Shown here in pieces: positions 2 to 64,000 of a DNA stretch of 64,000 bases. The notes below the pieces were generated by a model. The model saw only the letters and a program-made list of their open reading frames with translations. It made no database searches and was not told the DNA's origin. The translations under genes were made by a program, and so were the position numbers. Every line of letters begins with the position of its first letter. Position 1 is the first letter of the stretch. The stretch comes from an uncultured bacterium (GTDB taxonomy: Bacteria > Patescibacteriota > JACMRA01): assembly GCA_963704645.1 (NCBI GenBank), contig OY969926.1, positions 736,001-800,000 of the forward strand, written 5' to 3'.

Positions 2-916
2 AATGCGGAAGAATATTGGAATGCAAAAGATCAAATTTTCCTGTATAACAATTCTTTTTTGGTGGCTAACCAGCAAATTCAGGAAGTTAGTAAAAGTAGT
101 TTGCCAAACTCCAAAATTTTAATTTCTTCCTTAGAAGCAACTGAATCTGTTCAAAAACTTCAGTTTAAGCTTCCTGGAGAGCACAATAAAATTAATTTAG
201 CTTTAGCTTTGGCAATTGTTTCTAATGCTGTTAATTCCAATAATAAAAATTTGGATGACGTAAAAAGATGGGTGAGCCAGAACATAGATTTGCTAAATTC
301 AATTTTGCCTAATTTCCAAGGATTGCCTCATAGATATGAAAAAGTAAGAGAGGTAAACCTAAAAATAGATATTTTAGAAAAACCAAAAAATTTAAATATT
401 ATTTTTGTTGATGATGGCTACGCAACAGAACCAGACGCTGTGGCTGCTGCTATAAAATCTGTTCCTTCAACTTTTGGTAACTTTCTATGGCTATGGCTGG
501 CTGGGGTAGATAAAGGCTCAGGTTTAAAATCTATTGTAGACGCTATTTTTGAAAAACAATTGCACTCTGAATTATATAGTGTAGAATATTGTGGAGCTGT
601 AGGAAAAAGAGTTTTAACAGAACTGTATCACTCCGTGGGTTCACATCAGGAAATAGATGCTATAAAGTTTAGAGATAGTGTGGCACAGTTAACTGGGAAT
701 TTAGATGAAATAGAAAATAACTTTAAAAATTGGTTGAACGATTTAATTGAAGAGCTAAAACAAACAGAACAAGATGAAGTATTAACCGAGCTAGAAAACT
801 TGGAAGAAATTAATTTACATATAGTATTTTCACCAGGCGGCTCCTCTTTTGATGAATTTAAAAATGTAGGCCAGAGGGCAGAATGGTGGGTACAGTGGGT
901 TAGGGGGTTGAAGTAG
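2..916 (+). CDS. murD: UDP-N-acetylmuramoyl-L-alanine--D-glutamate ligase, C-terminal part (truncated by window start)
   Basis: Frame is open from position 2 (NAEEYWNAKDQIF). MurD motifs: PGEHNKIN, FQGLPHRYE, DDGYAT, LAGVDKG, FSPGGSSFDEFKN..QR. Confidence 0.85.
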   Translation, partial: NAEEYWNAKDQIFLYNNSFLVANQQIQEVSKSSLPNSKILISSLEATESVQKLQFKLPGEHNKINLALALAIVSNAVNSNNKNLDDVKRWVSQNIDLLNSILPNFQGLPHRYEKVREVNLKIDILEKPKNLNIIFVDDGYATEPDAVAAAIKSVPSTFGNFLWLWLAGVDKGSGLKSIVDAIFEKQLHSELYSVEYCGAVGKRVLTELYHSVGSHQEIDAIKFRDSVAQLTGNLDEIENNFKNWLNDLIEELKQTEQDEVLTELENLEEINLHIVFSPGGSSFDEFKNVGQRAEWWVQWVRGLK

Positions 917-1060
917 GAAGTTTTAGCAACCTTTATATCTAAGCCCAGGAAGCTGACCTTTTGAGGTTGGCTGCTTTTAAATTTCAGACAATTAAGTTTT
1001 CAACAGCAAAATCTTGGAAGAAAAAAAGCCTCAAGGATTACTTGAAGGCTCTTTTGAATA

Positions 1061-1523
1061 TTAATTTAAAGTATATTCAATATTAATGTGTTCAGGTGAA
1101 AAAGTTTTAACAAAACCGAATTGTACTTCAATTAAAGTGTTTGCAACCTCCATATCTTTTTCAAGGTCAAAAGTGTAATCATTATTAATTTCTTTAAAGA
1201 GATCTGCAATAGTAATTTTAACTGCTGAAGCATATCGGCTAATAACTACAATTTTCATCGTAAAGCCTGCCTCATATTCACCGCTAAAGATAATTTTTAC
1301 ACAGCCTTGTTCAATATTTTCCAAACTCCAAATGCTAAATTGCCAAACCATTTCGGTAAATCTTCTAATAATCACTACAACGTTCTAAATAGATATCTTC
1401 ATATGGAAATGAATCTTGAAGGTAAAAATTTTTCTCATCTCTCGACAAGTAGGGAATCACTACAACTGTATTTTTGTTAAAAATTGGATTGCCTTGTTCA
1501 AAAATTTTTTGTAAGGTTTGCAT
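1061..1523 (-). pseudogene. Frameshifted paralog of the orphan gene at 4258-4734
   Basis: ATG at 1523 gives MQTLQKIFEQG...YLQDSFPYEDIYLERC, matching MTTLQKIFNEG...YLKDTFPFQNIYLEKC. The frame shifts near 1376 (about 11 bp missing) and similarity resumes as IIRRFTEMVWQFSIWSL vs MIRNFTETFWLFTIWSL. Confidence 0.8.
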
Positions 1524-1619
1524 CTATTTCTCCATCAAATAAATTTTCAACATTTCTGTCTTTTTTAATGAAAGCACAAAGTTTAAGAAAGGTCAATCTT
1601 TCACACAAAATTATAATTA

Positions 1620-1715
1620 GACTAAAAAATTTTTTAAAAACAAAACTCACCCCGTTAAGGGTGATTAATGATGGCTCCGAACAGCGGACTTACTTCGAAC
1701 TTTTGACTGGAGTGA
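1620..1715 (-). repeat. Decayed duplicate of the tRNA-Asn 3' half plus its terminator
   Basis: aaaacaaaactcaccccgttaagggtgattaatgatggctccgaa is near-identical to 2450-2495. It is followed by degenerate T-arm sequence (ggact..tcgaac..gactgg). Confidence 0.8.
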
Positions 1716-1802
1716 ATTTGAGTTTTCTGGGAAGTTAAGTTTTGTTTAGGGGAAAATTTGGCAAGAAAAAAAGCCCCAAGAGTAGTAGGGGGCTTCTTTG
1801 GA

Positions 1803-14140: not shown

Positions 14141-14572
14141 ATGCTTGAGCAACAACTGTACGCCGTTAGTTATGTGCTGTTAGATACTTTTCATTCGCTA
14201 ATCTTTATACTATTCGGAATTTGTGCGGCTAGATTTTTTCTAGTAAAAGATGCTCCATATAGTTCAATGTATGTTGGAATTGTTGCCTTTATACAAGCAG
14301 TTTACAACGGCTGTCCGCTTACAGATGTAGTAAATTTATTTGCTGTAAAATCTGGCAATACAGCAATTGGTAACGAATTTTTGTTTGTATTTTTTGATTG
14401 GTATTGGTTTTCACGAATTTTAATTTTGTGTGTTTCTTTGCTTTTACTATATCATAGTTATGTAACTTGGAATAACCCTAGAACTATTGTTGATTTTAGT
14501 AGAGTGCTTAGGTTTTCAAACTTGACATCTTTCCTTACAAGAATGAAGACTTTACATATGTGGCGGGTATAG
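14141..14572 (+). CDS. Membrane protein
   Basis: 143 aa with TM helices and a GCPLT motif. Its stop codon lies inside tRNA-Gly. Confidence 0.7.
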   Translation: MLEQQLYAVSYVLLDTFHSLIFILFGICAARFFLVKDAPYSSMYVGIVAFIQAVYNGCPLTDVVNLFAVKSGNTAIGNEFLFVFFDWYWFSRILILCVSLLLLYHSYVTWNNPRTIVDFSRVLRFSNLTSFLTRMKTLHMWRV

Positions 14573-14636
14573 TTTAGTGGTAGAACTTAACCTTCCCAAG
14601 GTTGTGGTGTGGGTTCAATTCCCGCTACCCGCTCCA
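14563..14636 (+). tRNA. tRNA-Gly (CCC)
   Basis: GCGGGTA...AACC-TT-CCC-AA-GGTT...GGTTCAATTCC...TACCCGC-T-CCA. Confidence 0.95.
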
Positions 14637-14650
14637 GTATTTAAATGCAG

Positions 14651-14734
14651 GCGGTCGTGGTGGAACGGTATACACGCTACCTTGAGGTGGTAGTGCTGAA
14701 AAGCTTGGAGGTTCAAATCCTCTCGACCGCACCA
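14651..14734 (+). tRNA. tRNA-Leu (GAG)
   Basis: GCGGTCG...CTACC-TT-GAG-GT-GGTAG, long variable arm, CGACCGC-A-CCA. Confidence 0.95.
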
Positions 14735-14788
14735 TACAAAACACATTACAATTTGCTTATTTATAAATTCAAGAATTGTTAAACACAA

Positions 14789-14875
14789 GCCATTGTGGCG
14801 GAATTGGTAGACGCACTGGACTCAAAATCCAGCGAGAGCAATCTCATGAGGGTTCGATTCCCTCCGATGGCACCA
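14789..14875 (+). tRNA. tRNA-Leu (CAA)
   Basis: GCCATTG...CTGGA-CT-CAA-AA-TCCAG, long variable arm, CGATGGC-A-CCA. Confidence 0.95.
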
Positions 14876-18168: not shown

Positions 18169-21100
18169 ATGTTGCAGAAACAAAGCCAGTACTTTAAGCT
18201 TTTACACAAAAATAGAATATACTTATTCTTGTTTCTTATTTTTCTAACTATTGGTGCAACAGTTTCTTTAATTTATAATAATAATTTCAGAACAGCTTTT
18301 GCAGCTAATGAACCAATAATTAGTTTAGCTTTATCTCAAAAGTCTGGTACTGCTCCATTTACTGGGACTTGCACACCAGGAGGGAATACATATACACCAG
18401 GAGAAGATGCTTGTGATACTGATAATGTAGTTAGAACTTTAGATAATGTAGAGTTTAATTGGACTGTATCTGTAACTAGCGATCCTGCTAATAATGTTAC
18501 AATTACTCAAGTTTTGCCTAATGGTTTGACTTTTAATGGCGTAGTTTATAATCAGGGTGGTGGAACATCTGCAACTTTAAACTTACCTGTATTTTGTAAA
18601 ACTGGGGCAGGTTTTAATCCTCAATCTAGTATTACAGATAGTACTTTAGTTTGTAACCTTGGTTCATTCACAGCTGGTACTTCTACTACTACTAATTATA
18701 CTCAGATATTTGCTAAAGTTAAAGGAGATAATCCTAATGCAGCAAATATTTCTATTCCTTCTATTTCAGCGAATGCAGATTCAAACATTACAGCTGGAAC
18801 TAAGATTAGTAGTGTTAGCTCTAATGTTACCCCTAGTTTGATTGTTAGCGCCAGTCCTAAGTATGACGTGTTTTTAGCAAACAACATAGATACTTCAGTT
18901 CTTGAAAGTGTACTTAGTCCCACTGGCGAAGAAGGTGTATTAACAAGTGGGGTTGCAGTTAGTGCCAAATATGTTGGAATAAAAGGTGTGGAAATGATAC
19001 AGCAGCCGTTTAGTATTGATGTAACTTTGGAATATGTAAGCACTCCGGCCAGCGGTCAAACTTTTGAGGGAGCTAGATTTTACGATTGGGGTGATGTTTC
19101 AAAACTTGGGTGTACAGGTGCTGTAAGTATTGGAGGGTTTTTAAATAGCCCAAATGTAAATTGCAATCAGATATCCGGCCCTGGGAGTGCAGTAAGAGTA
19201 AATTTTAATAGTTTAGATTTATCTGGTACGCTTACAACAAATAAAATGTTTGCCAATACTCTCAACTCACCTGATCTTACTGTAGTTTCGCAGAAAGTAC
19301 GCTTTTGGATACCTAAAGCCGACTTTGATAAAATCTCAGGAACGTCTTTTCAATGGAGAGCTAGAGCTTCTAATTTTAATCTGGTAAGTATATCAGGAAC
19401 ACAAAATAATGGCACAGGCATTGAAACTAATACTGCAAACAATCTTGGAGCTACGAGTTCACTATTATATAATCCAGCCAATCCAGTTGGGGCAAGTATT
19501 CAATCTGGTTCTGGTGCTAACTTTGGATTGATTCAAAACTTGGTGATTGGAGGTGGATATGCCGCTGTGGGTGAAGCTACAGGTATTTCAGTTACAATTG
19601 GACAGCCTATAAATAGCTATTTTACAACTATCAATAATTTTTCAGTCTGTGCAGTGTTAGACACTAGTATTGCAAACCTACGGGGGCCTGCAGCTGGTTC
19701 AGCTGGATTTATTCCAGTTGCTGATCAGATAGACTTTTCAAGCGCAATATACGAATACGCAGCAATTCCAAACTTTGCTACAGCTAATTCTTGCGAGGAT
19801 ACCGATGGAACTTGGGTTACCTATGCAGATATTGGTAGTATTGGAGGCCTAGATGCAGTTACTAGAATTAGAGCAAGGAATGTTAACAATTTAAAACCAT
19901 TTTTGCCCTCTTCTTCAAATGCTCGTTTTGCGGTTCCTGTAAAAGTTAAAGACTTTCTCCCTACTTTAAATATAGCTTATTCACTACAAAAAGCATTCAC
20001 AAAATTTGGATCTGGATCTTGGGTAGGCGGGGGTGGGGGTGCCAACACATATGTTAATTTACTACCTAGAACATCTAAGGTTATTTTGGCAGACGGAACA
20101 AACAATAATACAAACACTGTTCTTTTAAACAATCCTGCAGGTAGTAGTAATACTATAAAATATGCTCTTCAATTTGGCTCATCCTCTGCTCTTACTGATC
20201 CTAGTAAACTTCATACCCTTAGTGTTAGAGAAAGGTTGCCAGTAGGCCAAAGATATTTAGTGGGTTCAGCACTCTTGGGTACTAGTGCAATTGAGCCCAC
20301 AAGCACTATTCTAAATGCCGATAATACTCAGGATTTGACTTGGGTATTTTCAGATATTCCATTTAATAGCCCCTTACGAACCATAACCTATAAAACAAAC
20401 GTTTCTGCCTTTACGCCAACAGGCACACCAATTTTAAATCAAACGGTAGCCACAAGTCCAGAATTTTTTAATGGAGATATACGGCCATTTTATACCAGTT
20501 ATACAGACTTTAATACTTTTAATACTGCGTTTAATTCTTCAACTAGTTGTAATAATACTACTATGTGTACCTCCTCCACAATAACCGTCCAAAACCTATC
20601 CTCCTTCGCGGTAGAACAAGTTCCAAATAATCCACTGATTGAAAAGAATAAAGATCTTGGTTTCACACTTCGTTATGGTAATTTGGATACACTTAACCCT
20701 GTAGCTTCCTCAACGCATATTAATGTATTTCCTTTTAGCGCTCAAACACCACCACGCTCTCCTGCCACCTCCTTTACAGGTAATCTTGTTTTCAAAGGTT
20801 TAGTTGTAGCTCCAAATAGTGCTAGTTCAGACCCTGCTGTGGTTAATACTAATGACAACATAACAGGTGGTGCTGGTACTGTTCAATATACTAAAGCAGT
20901 AAGTAGTAGTATAGCTTCTGATCCATGTGATGTTAGTAACAATCCTGCTGGCTCGCCCGTAAACACTAATCCAAGATGTGCTGGTGTAGATGGTTCTGTA
21001 ATTGGCACAGGAAGCACTATCTGGTGTGATGCTTCTCTAGATCCTGCTACTCCTAGTATTAAAAACTACTCAATCTTAAACAATGCTGGAGTTTATTCTG

Positions 21101-24012
21101 GAACCAATGGAGCAAACTCTTCAACTTGTCCTACTACTCTTTCTGAAGTAACGGCTTTTAGATTAGTTACAGGCTCTCTTCCTATTGCTTCTGGTTCTGG
21201 TGGAACTATCTATGAAGTTAAAGCTAACTTTGGTACTAATGGAAATACCAATAGTAATATCTACACTAACTTATCTCAAGCCAGAGCTGAAGGTATTGCT
21301 ACAGTTGCTACATCTAATAGTGCAGTAACCAGAGTAAGTAGTGGAAGTGTAAGTGGAAATATATTTAATGATAAAGACAGCAATGGAATAAAAGATATTC
21401 TAGCTACTATTCCTAATCCAAACTTTGATCCAGGCCTACCAACTGATCCTATCTCCAACCCTGAAACTATCACCAACCCAGAAAGTGACTTTGATCTTAG
21501 TGGGGTAAGCGTAGAACTAAGATACGGTACTGGTAATTTAGATGAAAACAACCTTCCAATTGCTGAGGGAAGTTTAATTACAACTGTAACTACTGATTCA
21601 ACTGGAAACTACACTTTCCCTAATATCTCAAGCGGTAACTACACCGTAGTTGTACTTCAAAACGGTATTCCTCTTTCTATTCAAACTACAGACAAAGACT
21701 TTGCATTAGACTTAGCTGCTAATCCAGGCTCTCCAAACAATACTCTTTTAGATAACTCAACGCCAATTACTTTAACATATACCAACGGAGTGGGTGTAAA
21801 CAATATTTCTAATGCAAACTTTGGATACAACCAATACAGCAGACTTACTGGTAAACTTTATGCTGATACAAATAACAATGGAATTCAAGATGATGGAAGT
21901 GTAAATGGTAACCCAGCTGAACCAGACTTTAACTCTACCACTAATCTAATTCCAACTGGTACCAGTGTAGTTATTACTTCTACAACAACACCAAGTATTA
22001 CTTACACTTTAACTACAGCAACATCTTCTACAGTTGTAAGTGGCTTTACTACAGGCAGCATTAACAACAGCGGTGTTGGTTCAAGTTTTGGATCCTTTTC
22101 TCAAGACTTACCTGTAGGAGAATATACCGTAACTGTTCTTACCGCCAATCCTAAATACATTGTTTCAGTTTCAACTCAGCTTGGTGATGCTGTTGGAGCT
22201 AACCCAAGTACACTAACTGTTAGCTTTGGTCAAACAAGAAGTTCTGGAAATGATGGATTACACCTTGTTCAAATTCAAAATACAGATATTGACTCTATTG
22301 CTTGTAACCCAACTACAACAAATGTTGATACAACCACAGATTGTACTGTTACTTTAGTAGCCGGTAGAAACTTTAATGCTTTAAGTGGAAGTATAGACTT
22401 TAGAATAGGCGATGGAATTGCAGGACAAGGTGGAACTGTTAAAACCTGCTCTATTCCTGTTACTGGTAATGGAGGAACTGGCAGTGATGGAACTATTACA
22501 GTTACAACTTTAACTTGTACGGGTATAACTGTAGGAAGTAATATTGGTATTTTCCCAGCAAGTTTTAAAACAAGCAACGATACAACTTTCATTACAGGAT
22601 CAAGCCCAACTAATATTACAGTAATTAATACAATTCAACCTAGTGATATTGACAGCATAGTTTGCCAAAGTCCTAAAGTAGTTAATGCAACTACAGACTG
22701 TGTTGTTACTCTAACTGCCAATGCCGTAAGTAGTAACAGAGCCTTTAACAATTTAACTGGTAGTATTGCTCTTAAAATATCTGATGGTATACTTTTAACT
22801 TGTCCTAACTTTGCATCGTCTACTTCACCTTTTAACACTCTAAATTGTAATGCAGTTTCTGTAGGAAGCTTAATAAGTTCTGGAAATGGATATACTGTGA
22901 ACTATGCTCTTAATGCTAGCACAACTACAACTGACGCACCTAATACTCCAAGTAAAAGCAATTATGTAGTGGTTAACAATACAATTCAACCTTCTAACCT
23001 ATCTAGTGTGGTTTGTGATAGTCCTAAACTAATTAACCAAACAACAGACTGTGTAGTTACTTTGGTAAGTGGAAATAGTTTTGCTAACTTATCTGGTGAC
23101 ATTAAAATTAAGATTAATGATGGACTTGAAACCTCATGCCCTGCCTTCTCTTCCTCAATTACTCCGTTTAACACCTTAACATGTACAGTAATTCCAGTAG
23201 GAACTTTAATTGGAACTTTCAAACCGGCCTATAGTTTAAGTAGTTCAGCAGCAATAGACACATTAAGTACTGATGTGGTTGTTTCTAATCCAGTTGATGA
23301 AACTATCTTGTCTAATCCATCAACTACAATTAATTGCCAAACAAATCAAATAAACTCTATTACAACTTGCACTTTCACTCTTCCTACAAATACTACTTTA
23401 GCCTCAGGATTAAAACTAGGTATTGGAGATTCTACACCAGCAGGAACTTGTATAGTAACTAATGCAACTACAGAAGAAGTAACTTGTACAGGTGTACCAA
23501 CAGGATCTTTAATAGGGCAACAAATTATTAAAGTGCAGATAGCCTCTGCAGCTGTGGTAGATACAACTAGTACTGCACTAGTAACAGACACTCCTTGTTC
23601 AACAACCAATCCTTGTGCTATTCTAGATTCTAGTCTAACCTACAACCCAACCCAAGCCCTAGCCAAAAGATATGGAGCTTCTGGTTCTACAAACTCAGAT
23701 AACCTAATACTAACTCTAAAAGATACAAGATTAGAACAATCTGGATTTACTACAACATGTTCCATAAAATATAAATTCAGAACAGATACAAGCTACAGAA
23801 TATTAACAACAAACTCTACCTACAATAATACTACAGGATGTACAGGAAACCTTCTTAAAGCAAATCAACTATTATTCAATGTAGACTTTGAAATAACTGC
23901 AATAACTACAAATACAACTACAAACACTACAAAGAACTATCTAATCTATTCCAACTACGATTTCAAAGCTGGTTCTATTGGAGTTACTTCTATTGGAGGA
24001 AGTGGGTTGTAG
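18169..24012 (+). CDS. Giant surface protein (1947 aa): DUF11-like and SdrD-B-like Ig domains, 4-Cys repeats, conserved C-terminal domain
   Basis: N-terminal TM/signal (AFA|A); GSVSGNIFNDKDSNG and TTDSTGNYTF (SdrD-B-like); repeated IQ.SDI.SI.C.P...T.DC modules; Thr/Ser/Asn-rich. Confidence 0.88.
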   Translation: MLQKQSQYFKLLHKNRIYLFLFLIFLTIGATVSLIYNNNFRTAFAANEPIISLALSQKSGTAPFTGTCTPGGNTYTPGEDACDTDNVVRTLDNVEFNWTVSVTSDPANNVTITQVLPNGLTFNGVVYNQGGGTSATLNLPVFCKTGAGFNPQSSITDSTLVCNLGSFTAGTSTTTNYTQIFAKVKGDNPNAANISIPSISANADSNITAGTKISSVSSNVTPSLIVSASPKYDVFLANNIDTSVLESVLSPTGEEGVLTSGVAVSAKYVGIKGVEMIQQPFSIDVTLEYVSTPASGQTFEGARFYDWGDVSKLGCTGAVSIGGFLNSPNVNCNQISGPGSAVRVNFNSLDLSGTLTTNKMFANTLNSPDLTVVSQKVRFWIPKADFDKISGTSFQWRARASNFNLVSISGTQNNGTGIETNTANNLGATSSLLYNPANPVGASIQSGSGANFGLIQNLVIGGGYAAVGEATGISVTIGQPINSYFTTINNFSVCAVLDTSIANLRGPAAGSAGFIPVADQIDFSSAIYEYAAIPNFATANSCEDTDGTWVTYADIGSIGGLDAVTRIRARNVNNLKPFLPSSSNARFAVPVKVKDFLPTLNIAYSLQKAFTKFGSGSWVGGGGGANTYVNLLPRTSKVILADGTNNNTNTVLLNNPAGSSNTIKYALQFGSSSALTDPSKLHTLSVRERLPVGQRYLVGSALLGTSAIEPTSTILNADNTQDLTWVFSDIPFNSPLRTITYKTNVSAFTPTGTPILNQTVATSPEFFNGDIRPFYTSYTDFNTFNTAFNSSTSCNNTTMCTSSTITVQNLSSFAVEQVPNNPLIEKNKDLGFTLRYGNLDTLNPVASSTHINVFPFSAQTPPRSPATSFTGNLVFKGLVVAPNSASSDPAVVNTNDNITGGAGTVQYTKAVSSSIASDPCDVSNNPAGSPVNTNPRCAGVDGSVIGTGSTIWCDASLDPATPSIKNYSILNNAGVYSGTNGANSSTCPTTLSEVTAFRLVTGSLPIASGSGGTIYEVKANFGTNGNTNSNIYTNLSQARAEGIATVATSNSAVTRVSSGSVSGNIFNDKDSNGIKDILATIPNPNFDPGLPTDPISNPETITNPESDFDLSGVSVELRYGTGNLDENNLPIAEGSLITTVTTDSTGNYTFPNISSGNYTVVVLQNGIPLSIQTTDKDFALDLAANPGSPNNTLLDNSTPITLTYTNGVGVNNISNANFGYNQYSRLTGKLYADTNNNGIQDDGSVNGNPAEPDFNSTTNLIPTGTSVVITSTTTPSITYTLTTATSSTVVSGFTTGSINNSGVGSSFGSFSQDLPVGEYTVTVLTANPKYIVSVSTQLGDAVGANPSTLTVSFGQTRSSGNDGLHLVQIQNTDIDSIACNPTTTNVDTTTDCTVTLVAGRNFNALSGSIDFRIGDGIAGQGGTVKTCSIPVTGNGGTGSDGTITVTTLTCTGITVGSNIGIFPASFKTSNDTTFITGSSPTNITVINTIQPSDIDSIVCQSPKVVNATTDCVVTLTANAVSSNRAFNNLTGSIALKISDGILLTCPNFASSTSPFNTLNCNAVSVGSLISSGNGYTVNYALNASTTTTDAPNTPSKSNYVVVNNTIQPSNLSSVVCDSPKLINQTTDCVVTLVSGNSFANLSGDIKIKINDGLETSCPAFSSSITPFNTLTCTVIPVGTLIGTFKPAYSLSSSAAIDTLSTDVVVSNPVDETILSNPSTTINCQTNQINSITTCTFTLPTNTTLASGLKLGIGDSTPAGTCIVTNATTEEVTCTGVPTGSLIGQQIIKVQIASAAVVDTTSTALVTDTPCSTTNPCAILDSSLTYNPTQALAKRYGASGSTNSDNLILTLKDTRLEQSGFTTTCSIKYKFRTDTSYRILTTNSTYNNTTGCTGNLLKANQLLFNVDFEITAITTNTTTNTTKNYLIYSNYDFKAGSIGVTSIGGSGL

Positions 24013-39752: not shown

Positions 39753-39893
39753 CTAATCTAAATTGGCAGAATTAAATAAAGCCCAAACAATTACAGTTGA
39801 AAGCACTATCAACAAAATTGCAAGTGGCCAATATGAAGCCAAAGTCTGAACATAAAAATTCAATACTTGTGTTACGCTAAAAATTCCTTTCAT
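39753..39893 (-). CDS. Small single-TM peptide (46 aa)
   Basis: AAGGAGG RBS then MKGIFSVTQVLNFYVQTLASYWPLAILLIVLSTVIVWALFNSANLD. Confidence 0.5.
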   Translation of the reverse strand: MKGIFSVTQVLNFYVQTLASYWPLAILLIVLSTVIVWALFNSANLD

Positions 39894-52986: not shown

Positions 52987-55900
52987 TTAACTTACGCTAC
53001 AGATTAATGTTCCTACGTAGGCCTGAGCTCTTATGTAGGCAGGGACTGTGAAATCTAAAGTGATATCTTTTTCAAATTTACCAACACCATAATTACTTGG
53101 GAACGAGGATAAGTTGAAGTTATTACTTTCTCCGTCGCTGCCCTCGCCAGTTAGCTGAGTAGTGCTTTGTCTTTCTGTGTAATCTGTTAAACCTTCCAAA
53201 GCTCCGAATCCAGTTACAACTTGTAATGTTGAGGGGGTGATTCCAAATTTAGAAGCAGAGTCTTTGTAAAGTGGAAGGACCCAAGAATTATCTAGAACTC
53301 CAGTTAAGTTACTAGATTTACAAACTAAACTCCAACCAGCTTGGCTTCCTCTTAAATCTTCCACGGTTATACCGTTTAGATTAGCAGAAGTGCTTTGTTC
53401 TGTTGTAGCTGCAGTAACAGAAGTAAAGTTTGCCACACTTGGACTGGTTAAGGTTAAATTACCACCATTTAAACATAGAAGTATATTAGTTATTGCTGTA
53501 TTTCCTTGTGAATTTGAACCACCTAATCCATTGCTACAATTAGCACCTCCTGAAGTGGTAGTTATGTTATTTGCATCTAAATATGTTGATCCACTTCCGC
53601 TAGCATTGTACTGACTTGTAAATGTTCCTTCTACACTTCCCACTGGTATGTTGTTACAAATTAAGGAAGTTCCTGAACCAACTACAGGACAATTTGTTAT
53701 AGTTCCGCCACTTCCAATTCTTAGATTCACACTTCCGTTTAAGGTGTTTAAGTTTACATTGGTTGTAATTGTGCAATTTACAGTGCTGTTTGTACCTACA
53801 GAAGTTGGTGAACAAAGCATGGATGTAATGTCTGAAGTTTGAATTGGATAAGTAACTGGGGCAGTAACTGTAATACTGTTACCATCGGCATACGCGCTGT
53901 TGCTTCCTGTTGCGTTATATTGACTAGCAAAAATTCCAGCAGCAGAACCTACATTTATGTTGTTACAAATTAAAGTTGTACCGCTAACTGCTAATGGGCA
54001 GTTTACAACACTTCCGTTAGTACCAACTCTAACATTCACACTTCCAGATAAAGTATTTTGATCTACATTTGTTGTAATTGTACAATCTACAGTTGTATCT
54101 ATAAGCGTAGATGAAGGTGAACATAGCATTGATGAGATATTGGAATTAAGAATAGCTGAAAGACTAGCACTTTGATAAGTAAAACCATTGCCTATTGCGT
54201 AAGAAGCATTTGAACCATCGGTAATTACTACATTAACTGGCCCAGCAGCATGAGCAGGTGTATATCCGGTCATGGTTGTAGAATTAACAAAAGTAACTGA
54301 AGTAGCTGGTAATCCATCAAAAGAAATAACTAATGTACCTACTTCCAAATTACTTAAAAGTTGTATTTCACCAAATGTGGAAGGTAGTTCATCATCACCA
54401 ATATTATTAGTATTAGGATAGCCAAGTTTACCACCATAACTATCTCCCCAACATTTCATGCCTCCTGTATTTAAAATTATACAGGTAGTTCCATAGCTTG
54501 TTGTGGTACTTAATTTAGCTACTATACCACCCACACTCACATCTCCAACTGTAAAAGGTAATTCGTCATCACCAATGTAATTTTCATTTCCATAACCTAA
54601 TTGTCCTGCCCAGTTTGCTCCCCAACACCTTAAGTTTCCAGCTGATAGTAATGCACAAACATGGTCTTCACCAACTGCTATTTCAGTTACGGTACCACCA
54701 ATATTAACATCACCGCCAGGACTGTTTCTGTCTGTTGTGTCTCCATAACCTAATTGTCCACTAGAAGCTTCACCCCAACATCTAACATTTCCTGCAGAAA
54801 GTACTGCACAGGTATGACGATAGCCACCACCAATTTGAATTACACTTCCTCCTACATTTATATCGCCAGCACTTGCTGGAGTTTCATTATCTCCTATGTT
54901 ATTATTATTTCCATAACCCAATTGACCTGCAAACCCATCACCCCAACATCTAACATTTCCTGCAGAAAGGATGGCGCAATTATGATAAGAGCCGGCGGAT
55001 AATTTGGTAACTGTTCCGCCTAAGTCAATATCTCCACCAGGACTGTTTCTTTGGGTTGTGTCTCCATAACCTAATTGTCCACTAGAAGCTTCACCCCAAC
55101 ATCTAACATTTCCTGCAGAAAGTAAAACACACACATGAGAATTGCCTGCAACAATATCAACTACAGTTCCGCCAACGTTAACATCACCGCCAGGACTGTT
55201 TCTTTGAGTTGTATCGCCATATCCAAGCTGACCGTCATAGTTGGCTCCCCAACATTTTACACTTCCAGAAGAAAGTAATGCGCAGGTGTAACCACCACTG
55301 GCAGTAATTTTACTTACAGGGCCTCCAAGATTTACAAATCCTACTGTACTAGGTAATTCATTGTCACCAATGTTAGTACTGTTACCATAGCCTAACTGGC
55401 CATAATAATTTGCACCCCAACACTTAACATTGTTATTGGAAAACAGGGCACAAGTATGATCCCAGCCTGATACTGTTTGAATAACCCCAATATTATTACT
55501 AAACTGGCCGTCAGCAATTGTAGCTGTAACAAAGGTGCCTCCAGCAGCAGGACCCACAATTGGGTCTAAAGTTATACTTGGTCCAGGAATAACGGTAATA
55601 TTGTTTCCATTTAAGTATGATGATCCGCTTCCGCTAGCGTTGTATTGACTTGTAAATGTTCCCGCTACACCACCCACTGCAACATTGTTACAAGTGATTG
55701 TGCTTCCTATACCAGTAACTAGACAATTTGTGACTGCGCCACTTGAACCAATTCTTACATTTACGCTCCCACTTAATGCATTGGTGTTTATATTTGTTGT
55801 AATGACACAATTTACTGTTGTATTTGTAGGTCTAGTTGAAGGTGAACATAGCATTGATGAAATATCAGAATTTAGTACAGGTCTAGGCGCTACATATGTG

Positions 55901-58900
55901 TAGGCATTTGTTAAATTAAAAGCAGTGTTTAAACCATCAGTAATTACTACGTTCACAGTTCCTACAGCATGAGCTGGAGTTATACCAGTAATAGTTGTAT
56001 TATTTACATAAGTAACAGAAGTGGCTTGTAAACCATCAAAAGTAATAGAAACAGGAGTAATTTCAGAAGGGTTAACAACTGAAATAGTTCCAATTGAGGC
56101 AGGAGTTTCATTATCACCAATTTGATTATAATTTGCATAACCTAATTGCCCATAGCTAGCATCACCCCAACATTTAACATTGCTGGTAGAAAGCAAAACA
56201 CAGGTATTATACGCTCCAGTAGAAATTTGTATTACTGTACCTCCTACATTTACATTGCTAATATTGGAAGGAATTTCATCATCGCCAATATAACTAGTAT
56301 TTGCATACCCAAGTCTGCCATAATCACTATTACCCCAACACTTTATATTGCCTGTGGAAAGCAGAGCACAGACGTGAGATTCTCCTGTAGAAATTTGCGT
56401 CACAGTTTCTCCAATACTTACATCCCCCGCCACAGACGGAATTTCATCATCTCCAATATTGTTAGTATTTCCATAACCTAATTGCCCTGCGTTATTAGCT
56501 CCCCAACATCTTACATTGCCAGTAGATAGCAAAGCACAGTTGTAGGATCCTCCAGCAGAAATTTGCGTCACAGTTCCTCCAACATTTACATCACCAGCAA
56601 CAGCAGGAGTTTCATCGTCTCCAATATAGTTGGTATTTCCATAACCTAATTGCCCACTATCAGCATAGCCCCAACATCTTACGTTTCCATTAGAAAGTAA
56701 GGCGCAGGTGTGTAATCCTCCAGCAGAAATTTGCGTCACAGTTCCTCCAACATTTACATCACCAGCAATAGCAGGAGTTTCATCATCTCCTATAATATCA
56801 CCATTTCCATATCCTAAGCTTCCGTAATTACCATATCCCCAACATCTTACATTTCCAGTATTAAGTAAGGCACAGGTATGATAAGCTCCAGTTGAAATTT
56901 GTGTAACAGTTCCTCCTACGTTTACGTCACCAGCGCTGGCAGGAGTTTCATCGTCTCCAATACTGTTGGTGTTTCCATAGCCTAATTGACCATAGCTACC
57001 CTCGCCCCAACATCTAACATTACCGTTAGAAAGTAACGCACAGGTATGATTTTGTCCTGTCGAAATTTGTGTCACGAAGCCTCCTACATCTACATTTCCA
57101 GCATTTGCAGGAGTTCCATTACCCCCAATACTGTTGGTATTTCCGTATCCTAAGCTTCCGTAATAGCCATATCCCCAACACTTTACATTGCCGGTATTAA
57201 GCAAAGCACATGTGTGAGCTTGCCCAACTGAAGTCTGAATTACATCTGGTCCGTCAGAAAAAGTTGCATTCGCTATACTTGCAGTAACTAAAGTTCCTCC
57301 TAAAGTTGACCCAGCAATTGGATTTATAGTTACAGTAGGAGCTGTTACTGTGATATTATTTCCATCTAAATATATTGATCCACTGCCACTCCCATTGTAT
57401 TGACTGGCATAAATTCCTGTAGTGCTTCCCACAGCAATATTATTACAAATGATTGTTGTTCCAGCTCCGCTAACTGGGCAACTTGTAATTGCACCGCCGG
57501 GGCCAATTCTTACATTCACATTTCCACCCAAAGTGTTGATATTTATATTTGTAGTAATAACACAATCTACAGTTGTGTCTATATTAGTTGATGAAGGTGA
57601 GCATACCATGGATGATATATTATCATTTGTAATTGGTTCTCCAATATATTCAAAACCATTTACAAGAGTATAAGATTGGCCATTGTAATTGGTGACAACA
57701 ATATCTTTAAACCCAGTTGTATTTGGAGGGGTGGTAAAATTGAGTTGTGTCGCAGAAACAAAATTTGCAATTACCTCTATACCATCAATTTTTATTGAAA
57801 TATCATCAGGACTATAATATGTATAAAATCCATCTTGGTTTCCTGCTGAAGTAATTGTCCTTCCTCCAATACCAATTGTGTCAAAATACTCGCCTGCAAT
57901 ATATAGTTTACCATCGTACTCGTATACAGCTCTAACCTGATTTCCACCCACACCTCCAACTGCAAGTTGTCCACCAGTACCACCGATACTGTTAAGTTGA
58001 ACTAAATTACCAGAAGTGTCGTATTGAGCAAAGAAAGCATTGGTACCATTACCACTGATTGTTTTATTGCCATCAGATAAAGCGTTTGTGTATCCACCTG
58101 CAATCCAAACTTTATTATTTGCATCCACATGTATATCTCTTGAAGTTGCAAAACCTGCACCTGGCAAAGCTCTTACCCATAAGTAATTTCCAGACGGATC
58201 TAATTTAGCTGTGAAAACCGTGGACCCTGTGGCCGAACCAGCAATATTAATGCCCCCAAAAGTTCCAAGAGCACCCCCAATGTATCCTGTTAAATATATA
58301 TTTTGACTAGAATCTATACCTATACCGTAAGGTAAGTCACTATTTTGGTTTACAGCTCCGTTTGTTCCACCATTTACTGCCCAAACTTCGTTTCCCGAGC
58401 TATCAAGTTTTACTACTGCAATGTTGGAAGTGGATAAAGAAGTTAAGGTTGTTGATCCTATAGTTATTGTTTCACGATAACCTAAAGCTACATAAATATT
58501 ATTACTTAAATCAACTGCCAAACCATGTGATTGACCATTGTTTCCACCAAGGTCGAGTGGGTCGGTTATTGTAGTATGGGAGTAATGCTTTACCCATTGA
58601 AAATCGCCGCTACTATTTAGTTTGGCAATATATAGCTCTCCAAAAGGTGAGGGAATGTTGAAGCTAATACCACCAAAAGTAGCTGTAGGTCCTTGCGTTT
58701 TTCCAGAAAAGTATATGTTTCCTGCGCTGTCCGTATCTACATTTGATCCAAATTGATATGGAAATTCTGTTCCTGTTTCAAATACAGTGTTTGAGCTACC
58801 ACCTCCAGTCTTAGCCCAGATAAAAGCACCTGTTGCTTTGTCAATTTTAGCAATAAATATATTTGAGCCTGTACTTCCCGATAATGTTGTTGAACCAAAA

Positions 58901-60762
58901 TTGGCTGTACCTGAATAATAACCGGAAATTACTATAGCTCCATTTGCTGAGTCATTTCCCATAGATTGTTTACGTGTGAAACCGTCTCTAGTGCTTCCAC
59001 CTGCCTTTGTAGCCCAGATATAATTTCCAGAGCTATCAAGTTTTGCAATATAAATATCTTGTTCACCGCTACTGGTAAGCGTTGTGGACCCCAGTGTAAT
59101 TGTTCCAGAAAATTCTCCAGATACATACTGTCCAGTACTATCTACTACCATACCACGAGCTCCGTCATAACCAACTGAACCTAAAGATCTAATGTTTTGA
59201 TATTGTCCAGAAATAAAATTTGAACCAGTTGCAGTAATATTTGTACCTCCAGCTACTGGGCCCGAGCTTACGTTTACACTTGAAATAGTGGGTGGAGGAG
59301 TGGGGTTAGTTGTCCAATTGGCACTAAATCCACTGGATTCAACTGTTCCATTAGAAGTAAATATAATAAGTAGTGTACCAGAAGTGGATGTGATAGTTCC
59401 TGGAAGGGTATTACCTGAAAAAGTTCCCAATAAAGGACTTGAGGTGGTTATCCCATCGTATATTTTAACCTCATCATTAACATTTTCAGTATTAAAAGAT
59501 GTGAAATTCAAAGCTATAGAATCTGCATTGCTTGGAGCAATAATAAATCTACAATTTGAATTTGCCAGATAATCAATTGGTCCTGAGCTTACTGTTCCAG
59601 AGTTTGTATTATATGTCTTATCGCCCTGACAAGCTTTGCTGGTTACACTAATAATTGTTGCAATTACACTGTTTGAAGTATAGTTTATTCTAACCCTAAC
59701 ATCATTTATTACAGAACTTGGCCCCCAGCCTTCTGCAAGAATTGAGTAACCTTCTGGTGCATTTGAAAATTCACCATATATACTAGCTCCTCCAGTTGTG
59801 CCCATAAGAGTGTAGGCCTCCCCAATATTATAAGATCCAAAGAATCTCATGCTTACAGTTCCATTGCTTAGATACATGTCGTTACTTATATATGCAACTC
59901 CATTATTGCCTACGCCTGAGGCATCAACCCCAAAATTTCCTGAATTTAAATTATAACTATTGAAATTTGTAACGTTGCCTGGATATAGATTTATACCATT
60001 ACCATTCTGTGTGAAGTTGTTGATTGTTGGTGTACCTGTTAGCAATACTCCTCCGGTACTGTACATTGGGCCGTCAATGATTGTATTTCCAGTTGGTTGT
60101 AGAAAAGACCCTTCATTATTTGTAGTTACTCCACTTTCGATGGTGGCATTTTCTAAGAGCTGAGTTCCATTGCCAACTTTTGTAAAAGTGCCAGTCCCTG
60201 TCATTGTACCAGAGAAATTATAAGTAGCATTGTTGTAGCACCCAGTAGTTAAAGTGTAACCACCTGCAATTTCTACTCTGCCACCACCATTTATTCCACA
60301 AAAAACTGCATCAACTTCAAAAATAAATCTACCCCCTCCGCCTGATTGAGTATCTAAACTTTGCCAGTTACTTATACTTCCACCAGTTAAAGTGTAATCA
60401 CTGTTATTTAGAGGTTCTACAATAAAAGCACCATATACACTTAGATATAAGTCATTATTTAGGTAATAATTATTTGCACTACTTGGGAAGTATAATGTGT
60501 CATAATCTTCTGGAACTCCAGAACCAGTTGGGCAGCTTGACCAGTTTGCTGGATCGCTGAAATTACCTCCGTTGTCACCAGACCATGTACAAGTTGCAGC
60601 AGAAGCGGTTGTTTTATTGGCATTTTGTATTGAAAAACTTATTCCAACTGCTACTAAAAGCAAGAATATTGCTAGGCCAATTAATATAAATTTGTTCTTA
60701 AAAAGTTTTTTTAGCCAATTAGAACGATATAAACCACTTATTTGGTTTTTCTGGGGTAGCAT
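52987..60762 (-). CDS. Giant surface protein (~2590 aa): beta-helix-like region, CUB domain, beta-propeller, IPT/TIG, two RCC1-repeat propellers, 4-Cys repeats, C-terminal WxL-like domain (probable start ATG 60762)
   Basis: Signal ASA|A; FTKVGNGT; Y.ANSNC.F.I...F..FNTE..D.V.IYDG...SG (CUB); GNYIWA repeats; many HTCALL..G.VRCWG....GQLGYG repeats; GGT...TPAH..G.V.V (IPT); EDLRGSQAGWSL...AQAYVGTLICSVS. Confidence 0.9.
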   Translation of the reverse strand: MLPQKNQISGLYRSNWLKKLFKNKFILIGLAIFLLLVAVGISFSIQNANKTTASAATCTWSGDNGGNFSDPANWSSCPTGSGVPEDYDTLYFPSSANNYYLNNDLYLSVYGAFIVEPLNNSDYTLTGGSISNWQSLDTQSGGGGRFIFEVDAVFCGINGGGRVEIAGGYTLTTGCYNNATYNFSGTMTGTGTFTKVGNGTQLLENATIESGVTTNNEGSFLQPTGNTIIDGPMYSTGGVLLTGTPTINNFTQNGNGINLYPGNVTNFNSYNLNSGNFGVDASGVGNNGVAYISNDMYLSNGTVSMRFFGSYNIGEAYTLMGTTGGASIYGEFSNAPEGYSILAEGWGPSSVINDVRVRINYTSNSVIATIISVTSKACQGDKTYNTNSGTVSSGPIDYLANSNCRFIIAPSNADSIALNFTSFNTENVNDEVKIYDGITTSSPLLGTFSGNTLPGTITSTSGTLLIIFTSNGTVESSGFSANWTTNPTPPPTISSVNVSSGPVAGGTNITATGSNFISGQYQNIRSLGSVGYDGARGMVVDSTGQYVSGEFSGTITLGSTTLTSSGEQDIYIAKLDSSGNYIWATKAGGSTRDGFTRKQSMGNDSANGAIVISGYYSGTANFGSTTLSGSTGSNIFIAKIDKATGAFIWAKTGGGSSNTVFETGTEFPYQFGSNVDTDSAGNIYFSGKTQGPTATFGGISFNIPSPFGELYIAKLNSSGDFQWVKHYSHTTITDPLDLGGNNGQSHGLAVDLSNNIYVALGYRETITIGSTTLTSLSTSNIAVVKLDSSGNEVWAVNGGTNGAVNQNSDLPYGIGIDSSQNIYLTGYIGGALGTFGGINIAGSATGSTVFTAKLDPSGNYLWVRALPGAGFATSRDIHVDANNKVWIAGGYTNALSDGNKTISGNGTNAFFAQYDTSGNLVQLNSIGGTGGQLAVGGVGGNQVRAVYEYDGKLYIAGEYFDTIGIGGRTITSAGNQDGFYTYYSPDDISIKIDGIEVIANFVSATQLNFTTPPNTTGFKDIVVTNYNGQSYTLVNGFEYIGEPITNDNISSMVCSPSSTNIDTTVDCVITTNININTLGGNVNVRIGPGGAITSCPVSGAGTTIICNNIAVGSTTGIYASQYNGSGSGSIYLDGNNITVTAPTVTINPIAGSTLGGTLVTASIANATFSDGPDVIQTSVGQAHTCALLNTGNVKCWGYGYYGSLGYGNTNSIGGNGTPANAGNVDVGGFVTQISTGQNHTCALLSNGNVRCWGEGSYGQLGYGNTNSIGDDETPASAGDVNVGGTVTQISTGAYHTCALLNTGNVRCWGYGNYGSLGYGNGDIIGDDETPAIAGDVNVGGTVTQISAGGLHTCALLSNGNVRCWGYADSGQLGYGNTNYIGDDETPAVAGDVNVGGTVTQISAGGSYNCALLSTGNVRCWGANNAGQLGYGNTNNIGDDEIPSVAGDVSIGETVTQISTGESHVCALLSTGNIKCWGNSDYGRLGYANTSYIGDDEIPSNISNVNVGGTVIQISTGAYNTCVLLSTSNVKCWGDASYGQLGYANYNQIGDNETPASIGTISVVNPSEITPVSITFDGLQATSVTYVNNTTITGITPAHAVGTVNVVITDGLNTAFNLTNAYTYVAPRPVLNSDISSMLCSPSTRPTNTTVNCVITTNINTNALSGSVNVRIGSSGAVTNCLVTGIGSTITCNNVAVGGVAGTFTSQYNASGSGSSYLNGNNITVIPGPSITLDPIVGPAAGGTFVTATIADGQFSNNIGVIQTVSGWDHTCALFSNNNVKCWGANYYGQLGYGNSTNIGDNELPSTVGFVNLGGPVSKITASGGYTCALLSSGSVKCWGANYDGQLGYGDTTQRNSPGGDVNVGGTVVDIVAGNSHVCVLLSAGNVRCWGEASSGQLGYGDTTQRNSPGGDIDLGGTVTKLSAGSYHNCAILSAGNVRCWGDGFAGQLGYGNNNNIGDNETPASAGDINVGGSVIQIGGGYRHTCAVLSAGNVRCWGEASSGQLGYGDTTDRNSPGGDVNIGGTVTEIAVGEDHVCALLSAGNLRCWGANWAGQLGYGNENYIGDDELPFTVGDVSVGGIVAKLSTTTSYGTTCIILNTGGMKCWGDSYGGKLGYPNTNNIGDDELPSTFGEIQLLSNLEVGTLVISFDGLPATSVTFVNSTTMTGYTPAHAAGPVNVVITDGSNASYAIGNGFTYQSASLSAILNSNISSMLCSPSSTLIDTTVDCTITTNVDQNTLSGSVNVRVGTNGSVVNCPLAVSGTTLICNNINVGSAAGIFASQYNATGSNSAYADGNSITVTAPVTYPIQTSDITSMLCSPTSVGTNSTVNCTITTNVNLNTLNGSVNLRIGSGGTITNCPVVGSGTSLICNNIPVGSVEGTFTSQYNASGSGSTYLDANNITTTSGGANCSNGLGGSNSQGNTAITNILLCLNGGNLTLTSPSVANFTSVTAATTEQSTSANLNGITVEDLRGSQAGWSLVCKSSNLTGVLDNSWVLPLYKDSASKFGITPSTLQVVTGFGALEGLTDYTERQSTTQLTGEGSDGESNNFNLSSFPSNYGVGKFEKDITLDFTVPAYIRAQAYVGTLICSVS

Positions 60763-60882
60763 ATATGTATTTTGTTTTTGTTTTTGTTTGGTAGTTTCAA
60801 CCAAGTTTCAGCAATTATACAGTAAAAAAAAGAATCTGTCTAAAATTTTTGTTGAAAGGCAAATTTTAAGGTTAGGGAATTC

Positions 60883-62280: not shown

Positions 62281-62511
62281 GCTACTAGAACAGTTAGGCA
62301 GCTGTTTTTAGTCAAGGTGGCTTGGGCGAGGGGAGATAAGTGGTGAAGAAGATACTTTGTGATTCAAACTTAGAGATTTACACATAAGAATTGAACAAAA
62401 CTACCCTTCCAACCTAAGCAATGGTAAATGCTAAGTACACTATGAATATTCTAGAAATAAAAAATACCCCTGGTAAGTAAACTGGTGCAGGTTGAGCTTG
62501 TTTCAACCGAC

Positions 62512-62575
62512 ATGTTTGCCCGAAGGGGTCAAGCCGAAGGCTTGGGGGTAGCGCCGCAGGGTTTGAGGGTAGTTT
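62512..62575. repeat. GC-rich palindromic intergenic element
   Basis: gcccgaagggg / aagccgaaggctt hairpins in an AT-rich background. Confidence 0.45.
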
Positions 62576-62643
62576 TGGAATGCGGGATTAAGACTTTATG
62601 TATTTGATTTTGTTTTTCTCTATTTCCTTGTCACACCCCAAGT

Positions 62644-63525
62644 GGGAGGCGGCAAGCATCTCCCCTACAGAGTGTTGTTGAGTTAAAGTATTCCCATACT
62701 AAAGTCCACTCCCCATCCCCTTACCCCTGGGAGATGACAAGCATCTCCCCTACAGAGTGTTGTGAATTTCAATGATTACCCCCTACAACCCACTTCCTCC
62801 AATACTAGTAACTCCAATAGAACCAGCTTTGAAATCGTAGTTGGAATAGATTAGATAGTTCTTTGTAGTGTTTGTAGTTGTATTTGTAGTTATTGCAGTT
62901 ATTTCAAAGTCTACATTGAATAATAGTTGATTTGCTTTAAGAAGGTTTCCTGTACATCCTGTAGTATTATTGTATGTAGAGTTTGTTGTTAATATTCTGT
63001 AGCTTGTATCTGTTCTGAATTTATATTTTATGGAACATGTTGTAGTAAATCCAGATTGTTCTAATCTTGTATCTTTTAGAGTTAGTATTAGGTTATCTGA
63101 GTTTGTAGAACCAGAAGCTCCATATCTTTTGGCTAGGGCTTGGGTTGGGCTGTAGGTTAGTGCTGTTTCGAATAGGGCACATGGGTTAGTTGTGGAACAT
63201 AGTGAATCTATTACATTTACTGTTTCTCCTGTAGGTGTTATTGTTTCAGTTCCTATTTGTCCGTTAATAGGTTGTGTTCCAAGAAGTGTTCCTGTTGGTA
63301 CGTTAATACAAGTTACTAGACTAGAGTTTATTCCTGTTCCTACAGTACAAGTTCCTGCAGGGGTTGCATTACCTATTCCTAGTTTGAAGTTATTTGGTAA
63401 TGTTTTGTTTGTAGGAAGAGTGAAGGTACAAGTTGTTGTAGTGTTTACTCTTACTGTTCCAGGAGTTCCTCCTACTCCACATGTTACTGTAAGGGAAGGG
63501 ATGTCGGTTGTGGTTAGGGGGGAGG
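62644..63525 (-). repeat. Repeat copy 3 (inverted relative to 25686-26539) including a GTAG-hairpin doublet
   Basis: Near-identical to the 3' 743 bp of gene 24248-26428 plus ~110 bp downstream. Confidence 0.95.
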
Positions 63526-64000
63526 AAGAGAAGTTTATTGTAGCAGCTGAAGTTGATGTAGTTTGTCCATCTCCTGCCAGGGTTACGTTTGGTAGAGTTA
63601 TGCTAGAAGTTGTTGGATTGGTTGGGGTTAGCATTTTGTATTGGATGTAGCCTGTTCCGTTGTTTGGGTCTAGGGTGTCAATGTATGCCACAGGTGATTG
63701 GTTAAACAAACTGAAACCACTCAAGCCAGCAGGACAAGTATAGGTTATTGAGGTGTTGCTTGTAAATCCAGCGTTGTACTGTATAGTTACATAGTCATCA
63801 TTTGGTTGGTAGGCAGATCTAATATACTGACATTCTTTAACTGCTAAATATCTTCCTCCTAAACTATCTTGTGATTCGTTAGCAGGTTGGTTTGCAAGTG
63901 TTAGTCCATTTGTTCCAGCAGGACAAGCAAATGCGTTACCAGTTGCTGAATTGCTAAAGCCTAAGTCATACTGTACTGTAGAATAATCATCATTTGGTTG
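62783..64000 (-). CDS. Third surface protein with the shared C-terminal domain (5' end beyond the window)
   Basis: Frame is open to 64000 (QPNDDY...CPAG recurs at ~64-aa spacing). Last ~247 aa nearly identical to the 24248-26428 product. Confidence 0.9.
   Translation of the reverse strand, partial: QPNDDYSTVQYDLGFSNSATGNAFACPAGTNGLTLANQPANESQDSLGGRYLAVKECQYIRSAYQPNDDYVTIQYNAGFTSNTSITYTCPAGLSGFSLFNQSPVAYIDTLDPNNGTGYIQYKMLTPTNPTTSSITLPNVTLAGDGQTTSTSAATINFSSSPLTTTDIPSLTVTCGVGGTPGTVRVNTTTTCTFTLPTNKTLPNNFKLGIGNATPAGTCTVGTGINSSLVTCINVPTGTLLGTQPINGQIGTETITPTGETVNVIDSLCSTTNPCALFETALTYSPTQALAKRYGASGSTNSDNLILTLKDTRLEQSGFTTTCSIKYKFRTDTSYRILTTNSTYNNTTGCTGNLLKANQLLFNVDFEITAITTNTTTNTTKNYLIYSNYDFKAGSIGVTSIGGSGL

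Follow-up and report, generated by a model that had tools for sequence, protein, structure and literature searches.

Near-absence of UGA stop codons and a retained release factor 2 in a low-G+C genome of Patescibacteriota

This article describes stop-codon usage in a stretch of DNA of 64,000 nucleotides, hereafter the window (G000:C1:736001-800000), and in the single-contig closed genome to which it belongs, that of an uncultured member of the Patescibacteriota (G000; 1,272,640 bp, 33.4% G+C). In this organism UGA is probably a stop codon that is still read by release factor 2 (RF2, encoded by prfB) but strongly avoided, the constraint on RF2 being relaxed, a late state similar to codon capture in which no reassignment has taken place. 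A codon near extinction whose old decoder is kept is what was found in both species of the genus at hand: at most 3.2% of the open reading frames (ORFs) of G000 and 1 of 150 in its sister species G001 end in TGA, and prfB is present.

ORFs were called with a simple scheme of our own, which takes the first start after a stop (that is, the longest frame) with a minimum of 60 amino acids (aa), scores frames by codon-usage log-odds trained on ORFs of at least 300 aa and selects them greedily without overlap. In the window 53 ORFs were obtained, of which 34 end in TAA, 19 in TAG and none in TGA. This recount agrees with the first-pass annotation, which had read 35 TAA, 22 TAG and no TGA among 57 genes and had given a probability of about 0.0025 for such an outcome at a TGA share of 10%, a value that is correct (0.9^57 = 0.0025). 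Genome-wide, the 1079 called ORFs, covering 85.5% of G000, end in TAA (646), TAG (398) and TGA (35; 3.2%), and at this share finding none among 53 has a probability of about 0.18. The window is typical of the genome, in which TGA stops are rare and not absent; the earlier statement that TGA is absent as a stop holds for the window only. The TGA-ended fraction amounts to 15 of 784 ORFs of at least 150 aa, 12 of 624 of at least 200 aa and 8 of 410 of at least 300 aa.

A gene-calling or assembly artefact is hardly credible as the origin of these counts. The ORF caller is home-made and the assembly carries a frameshift of its own in an rpoD-type gene (described below); however, stop-to-stop frames of at least 300 codons, which involve no gene model, end in TAA (237), TAG (174) and TGA (8), and the same caller yields 11-32% TGA in other families. 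Moreover, frameshift errors would add TGA ends instead of removing them, since out-of-frame TGA is plentiful (3648 occurrences in frame 2 and 13200 in frame 3 of G000 genes).

A neutral origin, in which low G+C and genome reduction alone pushed TGA to TAA with no selection on termination, would be in line with the 33.4% G+C of G000, with TAA being the commonest stop (60%) and with the lower TGA use of low-GC genomes in general (PMC12421855), yet it is very unlikely in view of the non-coding sequence and of the relatives. Outside the called ORFs, on both strands, TAA occurs 15390 times, TAG 6099 and TGA 5465; the rarity of TGA among stops is not mutational, because between genes TGA and TAG are of similar frequency. 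The shares of TAA, TAG and TGA expected from composition are about 57, 23 and 20%, as opposed to 60, 37 and 3% observed, and therefore TGA has been replaced by TAG, the RF1-specific stop, and not by the AT-richer TAA, which stands close to its expectation. Relatives were analyzed with the same caller on ORFs of at least 150 aa in 20-210 kb sampled per genome, and those of comparable G+C content use TGA far more (15 of 47, or 32%, in G020 with 34.3% G+C; 4 of 35 in G024 with 35.6%), while even at the lower G+C of G014 (29.7%) 5 of 72 ORFs end in TGA. The AT mutation pressure from TGA to TAA that belongs to the codon-capture model of Osawa and Jukes, as summarised in PMC8629427, was not found here, the change being from TGA to TAG with intergenic TGA near TAG in frequency. 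What removed UGA, as the evidence indicates, is selection at stop positions and not composition. The heads of REP elements (GTAGGGG) were considered as an origin of the TAG excess and rejected, as no more than 19 of the 398 TAG stops come from them, which explains little of that excess.

The genes that do end in TGA are informative on the meaning of the codon. A Pfam check was made on 20 of the 35 TGA-ended ORFs, those of at least 100 aa with the best scores; 14 had a match and the following nine are domain-complete:

TatD protein, residues 13-306 of 307 aligned with positions 2-253 of the 253-position Pfam model
PIN protein
Class I/II aminotransferase, with a TAA directly after the TGA
RNase H-like protein
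GT2 protein
DegT-type aminotransferase
DivIC
G000:C1:73645-75231, plus strand, large serine recombinase of 528 aa
G000:C1:1024590-1025456, HD_4 (RelA/SpoT-type) protein

Judging from these conserved genes, which end at UGA at the usual C-terminus, UGA appears to work as a stop in G000. The stop of the TatD gene turns over among relatives, being TGA in G000 and G011, TAA in G001 and G002, and TAG in G019 and G014. In the orthologue comparison G000 and G001 share the site of the TGA stop of the HD_4 gene. This gene is shortened in the genus: three other relatives run at least 97 codons further in the aligned part, two more being aligned only to residue 207, and the protein of G000 lacks about 133 residues that occur in G001 between query residues 208 and 222. 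The 3' end of the serine recombinase gene overlaps a tRNA-Ala(GGC) gene (75167-75242, minus strand), an arrangement that hints at integration of an element at this tRNA gene.

The number of 35 is an upper bound, because TGA-ended ORFs are short (median 131 versus 226-249 aa for the others, P=0.0008) and include a frameshift artefact in rpoD and a Type ISP fragment (positions 1-101 of a 342-position model); their coding score is also slightly lower (P=0.015). A fair estimate is that credible TGA stops close about 1% of the genes. Clustering of TGA-ended ORFs in islands was looked for and discarded (8 gaps of at most 5 genes versus 5.2 expected, P=0.11). The reading frame of the rpoD-type gene (G000:C1:1111590-1113760) shifts by one base near ...GCA CTT A GCC..., at about position 1112700, producing the false TGA end, and regions 3-4 continue after it in the +1 frame. 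All five relatives searched carry the gene as one uninterrupted frame of 739-749 aa, the frameshift occurring only in G000. Public sequencing runs hold only relatives (shares of at most 0.19) and no contig spans the site, at approximately 490-506 of L192; the frameshift may reflect an error in the assembly or a genuine mutation. The same locus combines the housekeeping sigma-70 with a TsaE domain (the P-loop domain of t6A synthesis) in an in-frame fusion: the 730-aa ORF of G001 (L193:1471-3663) comprises Sigma70 regions 1.2, 2, 3 and 4 as well as TsaE at residues 593-697.

Several searches addressed UGA as a sense codon. When TGA was treated as sense, coverage by frames of at least 300 codons rose only from 60.2% to 62.2%. 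An internal TGA was present in 1118 frames delimited by TAA or TAG and not shorter than 100 codons; a coding filter that asked for two parts, each of at least 50 codons and with good coding scores, let 20 of them through. None of these 20 was a gene with in-frame TGA, since 19 lie antisense to a called gene and one consists of two genes and a non-coding spacer. ARAGORN predicted 41 tRNAs and a tmRNA in G000, with CCA as the sole tRNA-Trp anticodon and GCC, UCC and CCC for tRNA-Gly; no tRNA with anticodon UCA was found either at the default threshold or with introns allowed, and at a very low threshold the 13 tca among 741 hits were at noise level (24 tta, 12 cta). No in-frame TGA was present in 18 ribosomal-protein matches, nor was any internal TGA detected by tblastn in ribosomal-protein matches of 56 genomes of the phylum (G000 and 55 others), where the few TGA codons under table 25 sit at match ends. 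An RF2 hit at E<=1e-95 is present in 285 of 301 phylum genomes and missing in 16; no recoding was seen in the ribosomal-protein loci of 8 of these 16, a look at relatives of one genome with no RF2 hit (G075) brought nothing further, and phylum-wide searches with rpoB and prfB found no recoded relative. G000 thus bears none of the tested marks of table 25 or table 4, having prfB, no tRNA(UCA) and no in-frame UGA, and it appears to use the standard bacterial code (table 11), with UGA still a stop. The earlier suggestion that UGA is unassigned or rarely reassigned did not hold up against these searches and the domain-complete genes that end in TGA; an unassigned codon would have no decoder, while RF2 in G000 is intact and under purifying selection.

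The release factor genes were located as follows:

G000:C1:223682-224773, plus strand, prfB, a single frame of 363 aa scoring 361.9 bits against TIGR00020 (cut-off 370)
G000:C1:617865-618938, minus strand, prfA

The prfB gene has no internal stop, so it has no programmed (autoregulatory) frameshift. Aligned with solved RF2 chains, the predicted protein keeps the SPF and GGQ motifs, and in a comparison with 118 homologues it departs from only one of the 79 columns with a conservation of 95% or more (V190A). The sampled class of G000 comprises a single order with two families and 27 species genomes; RF2-level matches occur in 24 of them, the other three genomes being 64-79% complete. The RF2 loci compared were L001:1480-2571 (G000), L166 (G009), L136-L140 and L065; the RF2 of G009 has SPY in place of SPF. 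In the loop after SPF, G000 has TRETSF where solved RF2 structures have RRHTSF, with Glu for His. This loop change was examined as a cause of UGA loss and ruled out, as R-E-T-S-F is the reading of this class and of many relatives: Glu is present in all 117 of the top 120 in which the loop motif was found, and also in G040 and in G022, where 27% of stops are TGA (Gln occurs in G021 and G025, and His in G027).

RF2 and RF1 have diverged at different rates in the genus. Between G000 and G001, RF2 is 61.6% identical (29th percentile) and RF1 84.6% (87th percentile), the median of 172 orthologues being 70.9%. The ratio of divergences, (100-RF2)/(100-RF1), is 2.45 for this pair, as against 0.74-1.31 in eight same-genus control pairs, which belong to four other families (three of the pairs to family f16). 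The RF2/RF1 identity ratio is 0.82-0.94 in cross-genus pairs of the class and 0.87-1.09 in six deep outgroup pairs. Nei-Gojobori estimates for G000-G001, presented as pN, pS and dN and not as dN/dS on account of saturated synonymous sites (pS about 0.7), are pN 0.256 and pS 0.734 for RF2, and pN 0.108 and pS 0.661 for RF1; in the core of the proteins dN is 0.20 for RF2 (residues 111-363) versus 0.061 for RF1 (residues 106-357). Because its pN is well below its pS, RF2 is under purifying selection, clearly weaker than the one acting on RF1.

These data bear directly on the proposal of the first-pass annotation that RF2 has been lost or crippled, that UGA is left unassigned or is rarely read as sense and that the lineage stands inside a code change. 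The near-disappearance of TGA stops, the faster evolution of RF2 than of RF1, the missing autoregulatory frameshift and the altered recognition loop are all consistent with a non-functional RF2. The proposal is nonetheless improbable and largely refuted by an intact prfB, whose single open frame, conserved motifs and low pN relative to pS argue for a maintained protein; the loop is shared with homologues that include a genome rich in TGA stops, one TGA stop is common to both species of the genus, and neither a tRNA(UCA) nor in-frame TGA was found in G000. As regards an intermediate state of code change, the purging of UGA in the genus and the acceleration of RF2 support part of the idea, and reassignment is the part that was not observed. 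An intact prfB together with a normal TGA share elsewhere in the genome had been named as the outcome that would speak against it: prfB is intact, and the TGA share is far from normal.

The distribution of TGA stops places the phenomenon at the level of the genus. At the cut of 150 aa the two species range from 0.7% (G001, 1 of 150 in 210 kb) to 1.9% (G000, 15 of 784), while other genera of the family lie at 4-19% (G002 7 of 96, G009 2 of 49, G014 5 of 72, G007 2 of 37, G006 3 of 16, G008 3 of 25, G011 2 of 16, G013 5 of 30) and the order-mate G019 has 6 of 76. The three genomes of f16, the nearest sampled family, have 3 of 40, 7 of 44 and 5 of 41; seven other families range from 11 to 32%, and the other families of the phylum, f16 included, from 7 to 32%. 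In trees of 18 ribosomal proteins (2478 columns, 54 genomes with at least 10 markers, G007 and G210 having been dropped) the class of G000 groups with G040, a member of f16, with a FastTree support of 1.0 and an IQ-TREE SH-aLRT of 99.9. Low TGA use is a tendency of the whole family, and near-extinction is specific to the genus of G000 and G001.

These observations can be arranged in a mechanism in which selection has probably taken UGA from nearly all stop positions in the genus, putting mainly UAG in its place. With few UGA stops remaining, less RF2 would be needed, and the constraint on the protein has relaxed while staying purifying. The most likely cause of the avoidance is that termination at UGA is slow or leaky, with RF2 activity or amount low relative to RF1. 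A self-reinforcing loop may then have operated, in which fewer UGA stops lessen the need for RF2, RF2 weakens in turn and the avoidance of UGA becomes stronger.

The avoidance pattern alone fits a weak RF2 and a strong competitor equally well, and UGA could instead be leaky through near-cognate reading by tRNA-Trp(CCA) or another tRNA, RF2 being normal and the avoidance answering a property of the tRNA or the ribosome. The D-stem of the tRNA-Trp(CCA) of G000 has a U11-A24 pair, as in the Hirsh UGA suppressor of E. coli. In addition, a TAA or TAG backup lies within 4 codons after TGA nominally more often than after other stops (34% vs 22%). This explanation is nevertheless unlikely: counting any stop within 4 codons, the enrichment is not significant (14 of 35 vs 292 of 1044, Fisher P=0.13), and a competing tRNA leaves unexplained why RF2 has diverged beyond RF1. 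A tRNA-Trp with a 4-bp anticodon stem, a form linked to UGA reading (PMC13092985), was sought and not seen in G000, where the stem is a normal one of 5 bp.

The reading preferred here, a UGA stop still served by RF2 and strongly avoided, has to be set against a number of points that weigh on the other side. Its proposed cause, a weak or scarce RF2, is an inference from sequence. The RF2 sequence itself gives no sign of weakness, with 78 of 79 conserved columns kept, and the lack of a significant excess of backup stops disfavours a very leaky UGA, because a strong leak should have enriched them. Much of the change in RF2 falls in domain 1 (dN 0.67, residues 1-110), the acceleration is measured in the single species pair G000-G001, and the saturation of synonymous sites limits these estimates to pN, pS and dN. 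The gene calls are home-made and do not come from a standard annotation pipeline, and the relatives enter with only partial genome samples of the size given above. Finally, TGA use is graded across the family (1-19%), and the genus may simply stand at the end of a continuous range.

A further-reaching reading, put forward tentatively and as considerably less probable than the one above, is that the genus represents a natural bacterium at the end-point of codon disappearance, in which UGA ends about 1% of genes, mostly accessory ones, RF2 drifts 2-3 times as fast as RF1, and the codon was lost by selection for stops read by RF1 and not by AT pressure. If true, RF2 would be close to dispensable in the genus, uncultured relatives (with RF2 69-78% identical) may include lineages that have no prfB or have captured UGA, and a stepwise series for stop-codon reassignment could be assembled within the Patescibacteria.

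Other features of the window are given below by position in the stretch:

2..64000, whole window, 53 called ORFs with no TGA end, representative of the genome-wide near-absence of TGA stops
14563..14875, plus strand, cluster of tRNA-Gly(CCC), tRNA-Leu(GAG) and tRNA-Leu(CAA), one part of the six tRNAs of the window, in a tRNA set with no UCA
18169..24012, plus strand, Gly/Thr-rich surface-protein ORF of 1947 aa, open under table 11 with no in-frame TGA
39753..39893, minus strand, hydrophobic micro-ORF of 46 aa, starting inside an ATGA overlap and ending in TAG followed by TAA
39890..40057, minus strand, hydrophobic micro-ORF of 55 aa, a putative gene with AGGAGG upstream of its ATG and the sole TGA-ended candidate of the window
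52987..60804, minus strand, ORF of 2605 aa, open under table 11 with no in-frame TGA

The two long ORFs bear out the remark of the earlier annotation that TGA does not interrupt the long Gly-rich frames (1947 and about 2590 aa in its count), and the single TGA-ended candidate that it had reported at 39890 was found again. In the micro-ORF pair (39753-40057, minus strand) the TGA of the 55-aa ORF overlaps the ATG of the 46-aa ORF and an AGGAGG-type site precedes each; this two-gene micro-operon could be a pair of small membrane peptides. A near-identical 1948-aa copy of the surface-protein gene lies about 371 kb away (G000:C1:1125298-1131144, plus strand), and the frames antisense to the two copies translate identically for 300 codons and turned up as false hits in the search for in-frame TGA. 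Elsewhere in the genome, the ribosomal-protein operon at G000:C1:151479-162526 (minus strand) is seemingly rearranged, with an S19-like ORF before an L2-like one and with a short EF-Ts-like ORF and an L25-like ORF ahead of L15, as judged by N-terminal sequence and size. A tRNA-Ile with anticodon UAU was predicted by ARAGORN at G000:C1:1155868-1155945 (plus strand) besides tRNA-Ile(GAU), and no additional CAU tRNA stands out in the ARAGORN set of G000 as a lysidine-type tRNA-Ile.

Several bacterial groups, among them this phylum, are known to have reassigned UGA to Trp or Gly, and the stage just before reassignment is rarely seen. The genus of G000 offers a test case for whether a weak RF2 precedes the loss of the codon or follows it, and genomes of this type could mislead tools that infer the code from stop usage or coding density. 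In the recoded Patescibacteriota, UGA is read as Gly in class JAEDAM01 (table 25) and as Trp in family JAKLIH01 and genus GCA-2747955 of the Minisyncoccia (table 4) (PeerJ 2026, PMC13695967). They share with G000 the phylum-level group, small low-GC genomes and a UGA that is no ordinary stop; unlike G000, they have no prfB, in most cases possess a tRNA(UCA), and show UGA in columns where Gly or Trp is conserved (PMC13695967). Candidatus Providencia siddallii, a group of leech symbionts, has been placed at an early or intermediate stage of reassignment (Genome Biol Evol 2023, PMC10540940). As in G000, prfB and tRNA-Trp(CCA) are kept and few genes end in UGA; however, in-frame UGA affects 20% of genes in one strain and 9 genes in the others, while G000 has none, and in the strain with 20% UGA occurs inside prfB itself, whose counterpart in G000 is clean (PMC10540940).

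Closer to G000 are lineages that keep prfB and use UGA sparingly. In the prfB-keeping Mycoplasmatota (Acholeplasmataceae, including phytoplasmas) RF2 'may be actively decaying' (mBio 2025, PMC12421855); low G+C, low TGA and a prfB with no programmed frameshift are common to them and G000, the differences being that they belong to another phylum and that their sister lineages completed the change of UGA to Trp (PMC12421855). Flavobacterium johnsoniae, whose 7% of RF2-specific stops was called 'unusually low' (mBio 2025, PMC12421855), resembles G000 in its standard code, its prfB and its few TGA stops, although it retains the prfB frameshift motif and its TGA share is 2-7 times higher (PMC12421855). 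Tapirivita, of the Eggerthellaceae, uses code 11, keeps prfB and 'rarely' uses UGA, with a mean of 9.2% (Microb Genom 2026, PMC13462651). With its standard code, prfB, low G+C, small genome and rare UGA it is similar to G000, and its authors discuss a state near reassignment (PMC13462651). It differs in the degree of UGA use (9.2% against at most 3.2% in G000, and 0.7-1.9% in ORFs of at least 150 aa in G000 and G001) and in sitting between two genera that read UGA as Trp, while no recoded lineage was found near the genus of G000 among the phylum genomes searched; the rate of RF2 was measured for the latter, and in the available text no such comparison was found for Tapirivita (PMC13462651).

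A literature search found no paper on near-absent UGA stops with a kept prfB in Patescibacteria. UGA closes at most 3% of the ORFs here, less than the 7-9% for which papers use the words 'unusually low' or 'rarely', while the per-genome tables of PMC12421855 and PMC13695967 might list values as low. Within this series, G000 is a more extreme member of the kind in which UGA is rare and prfB is kept, to which the replacement of UGA by TAG and a measured acceleration of RF2 are added.

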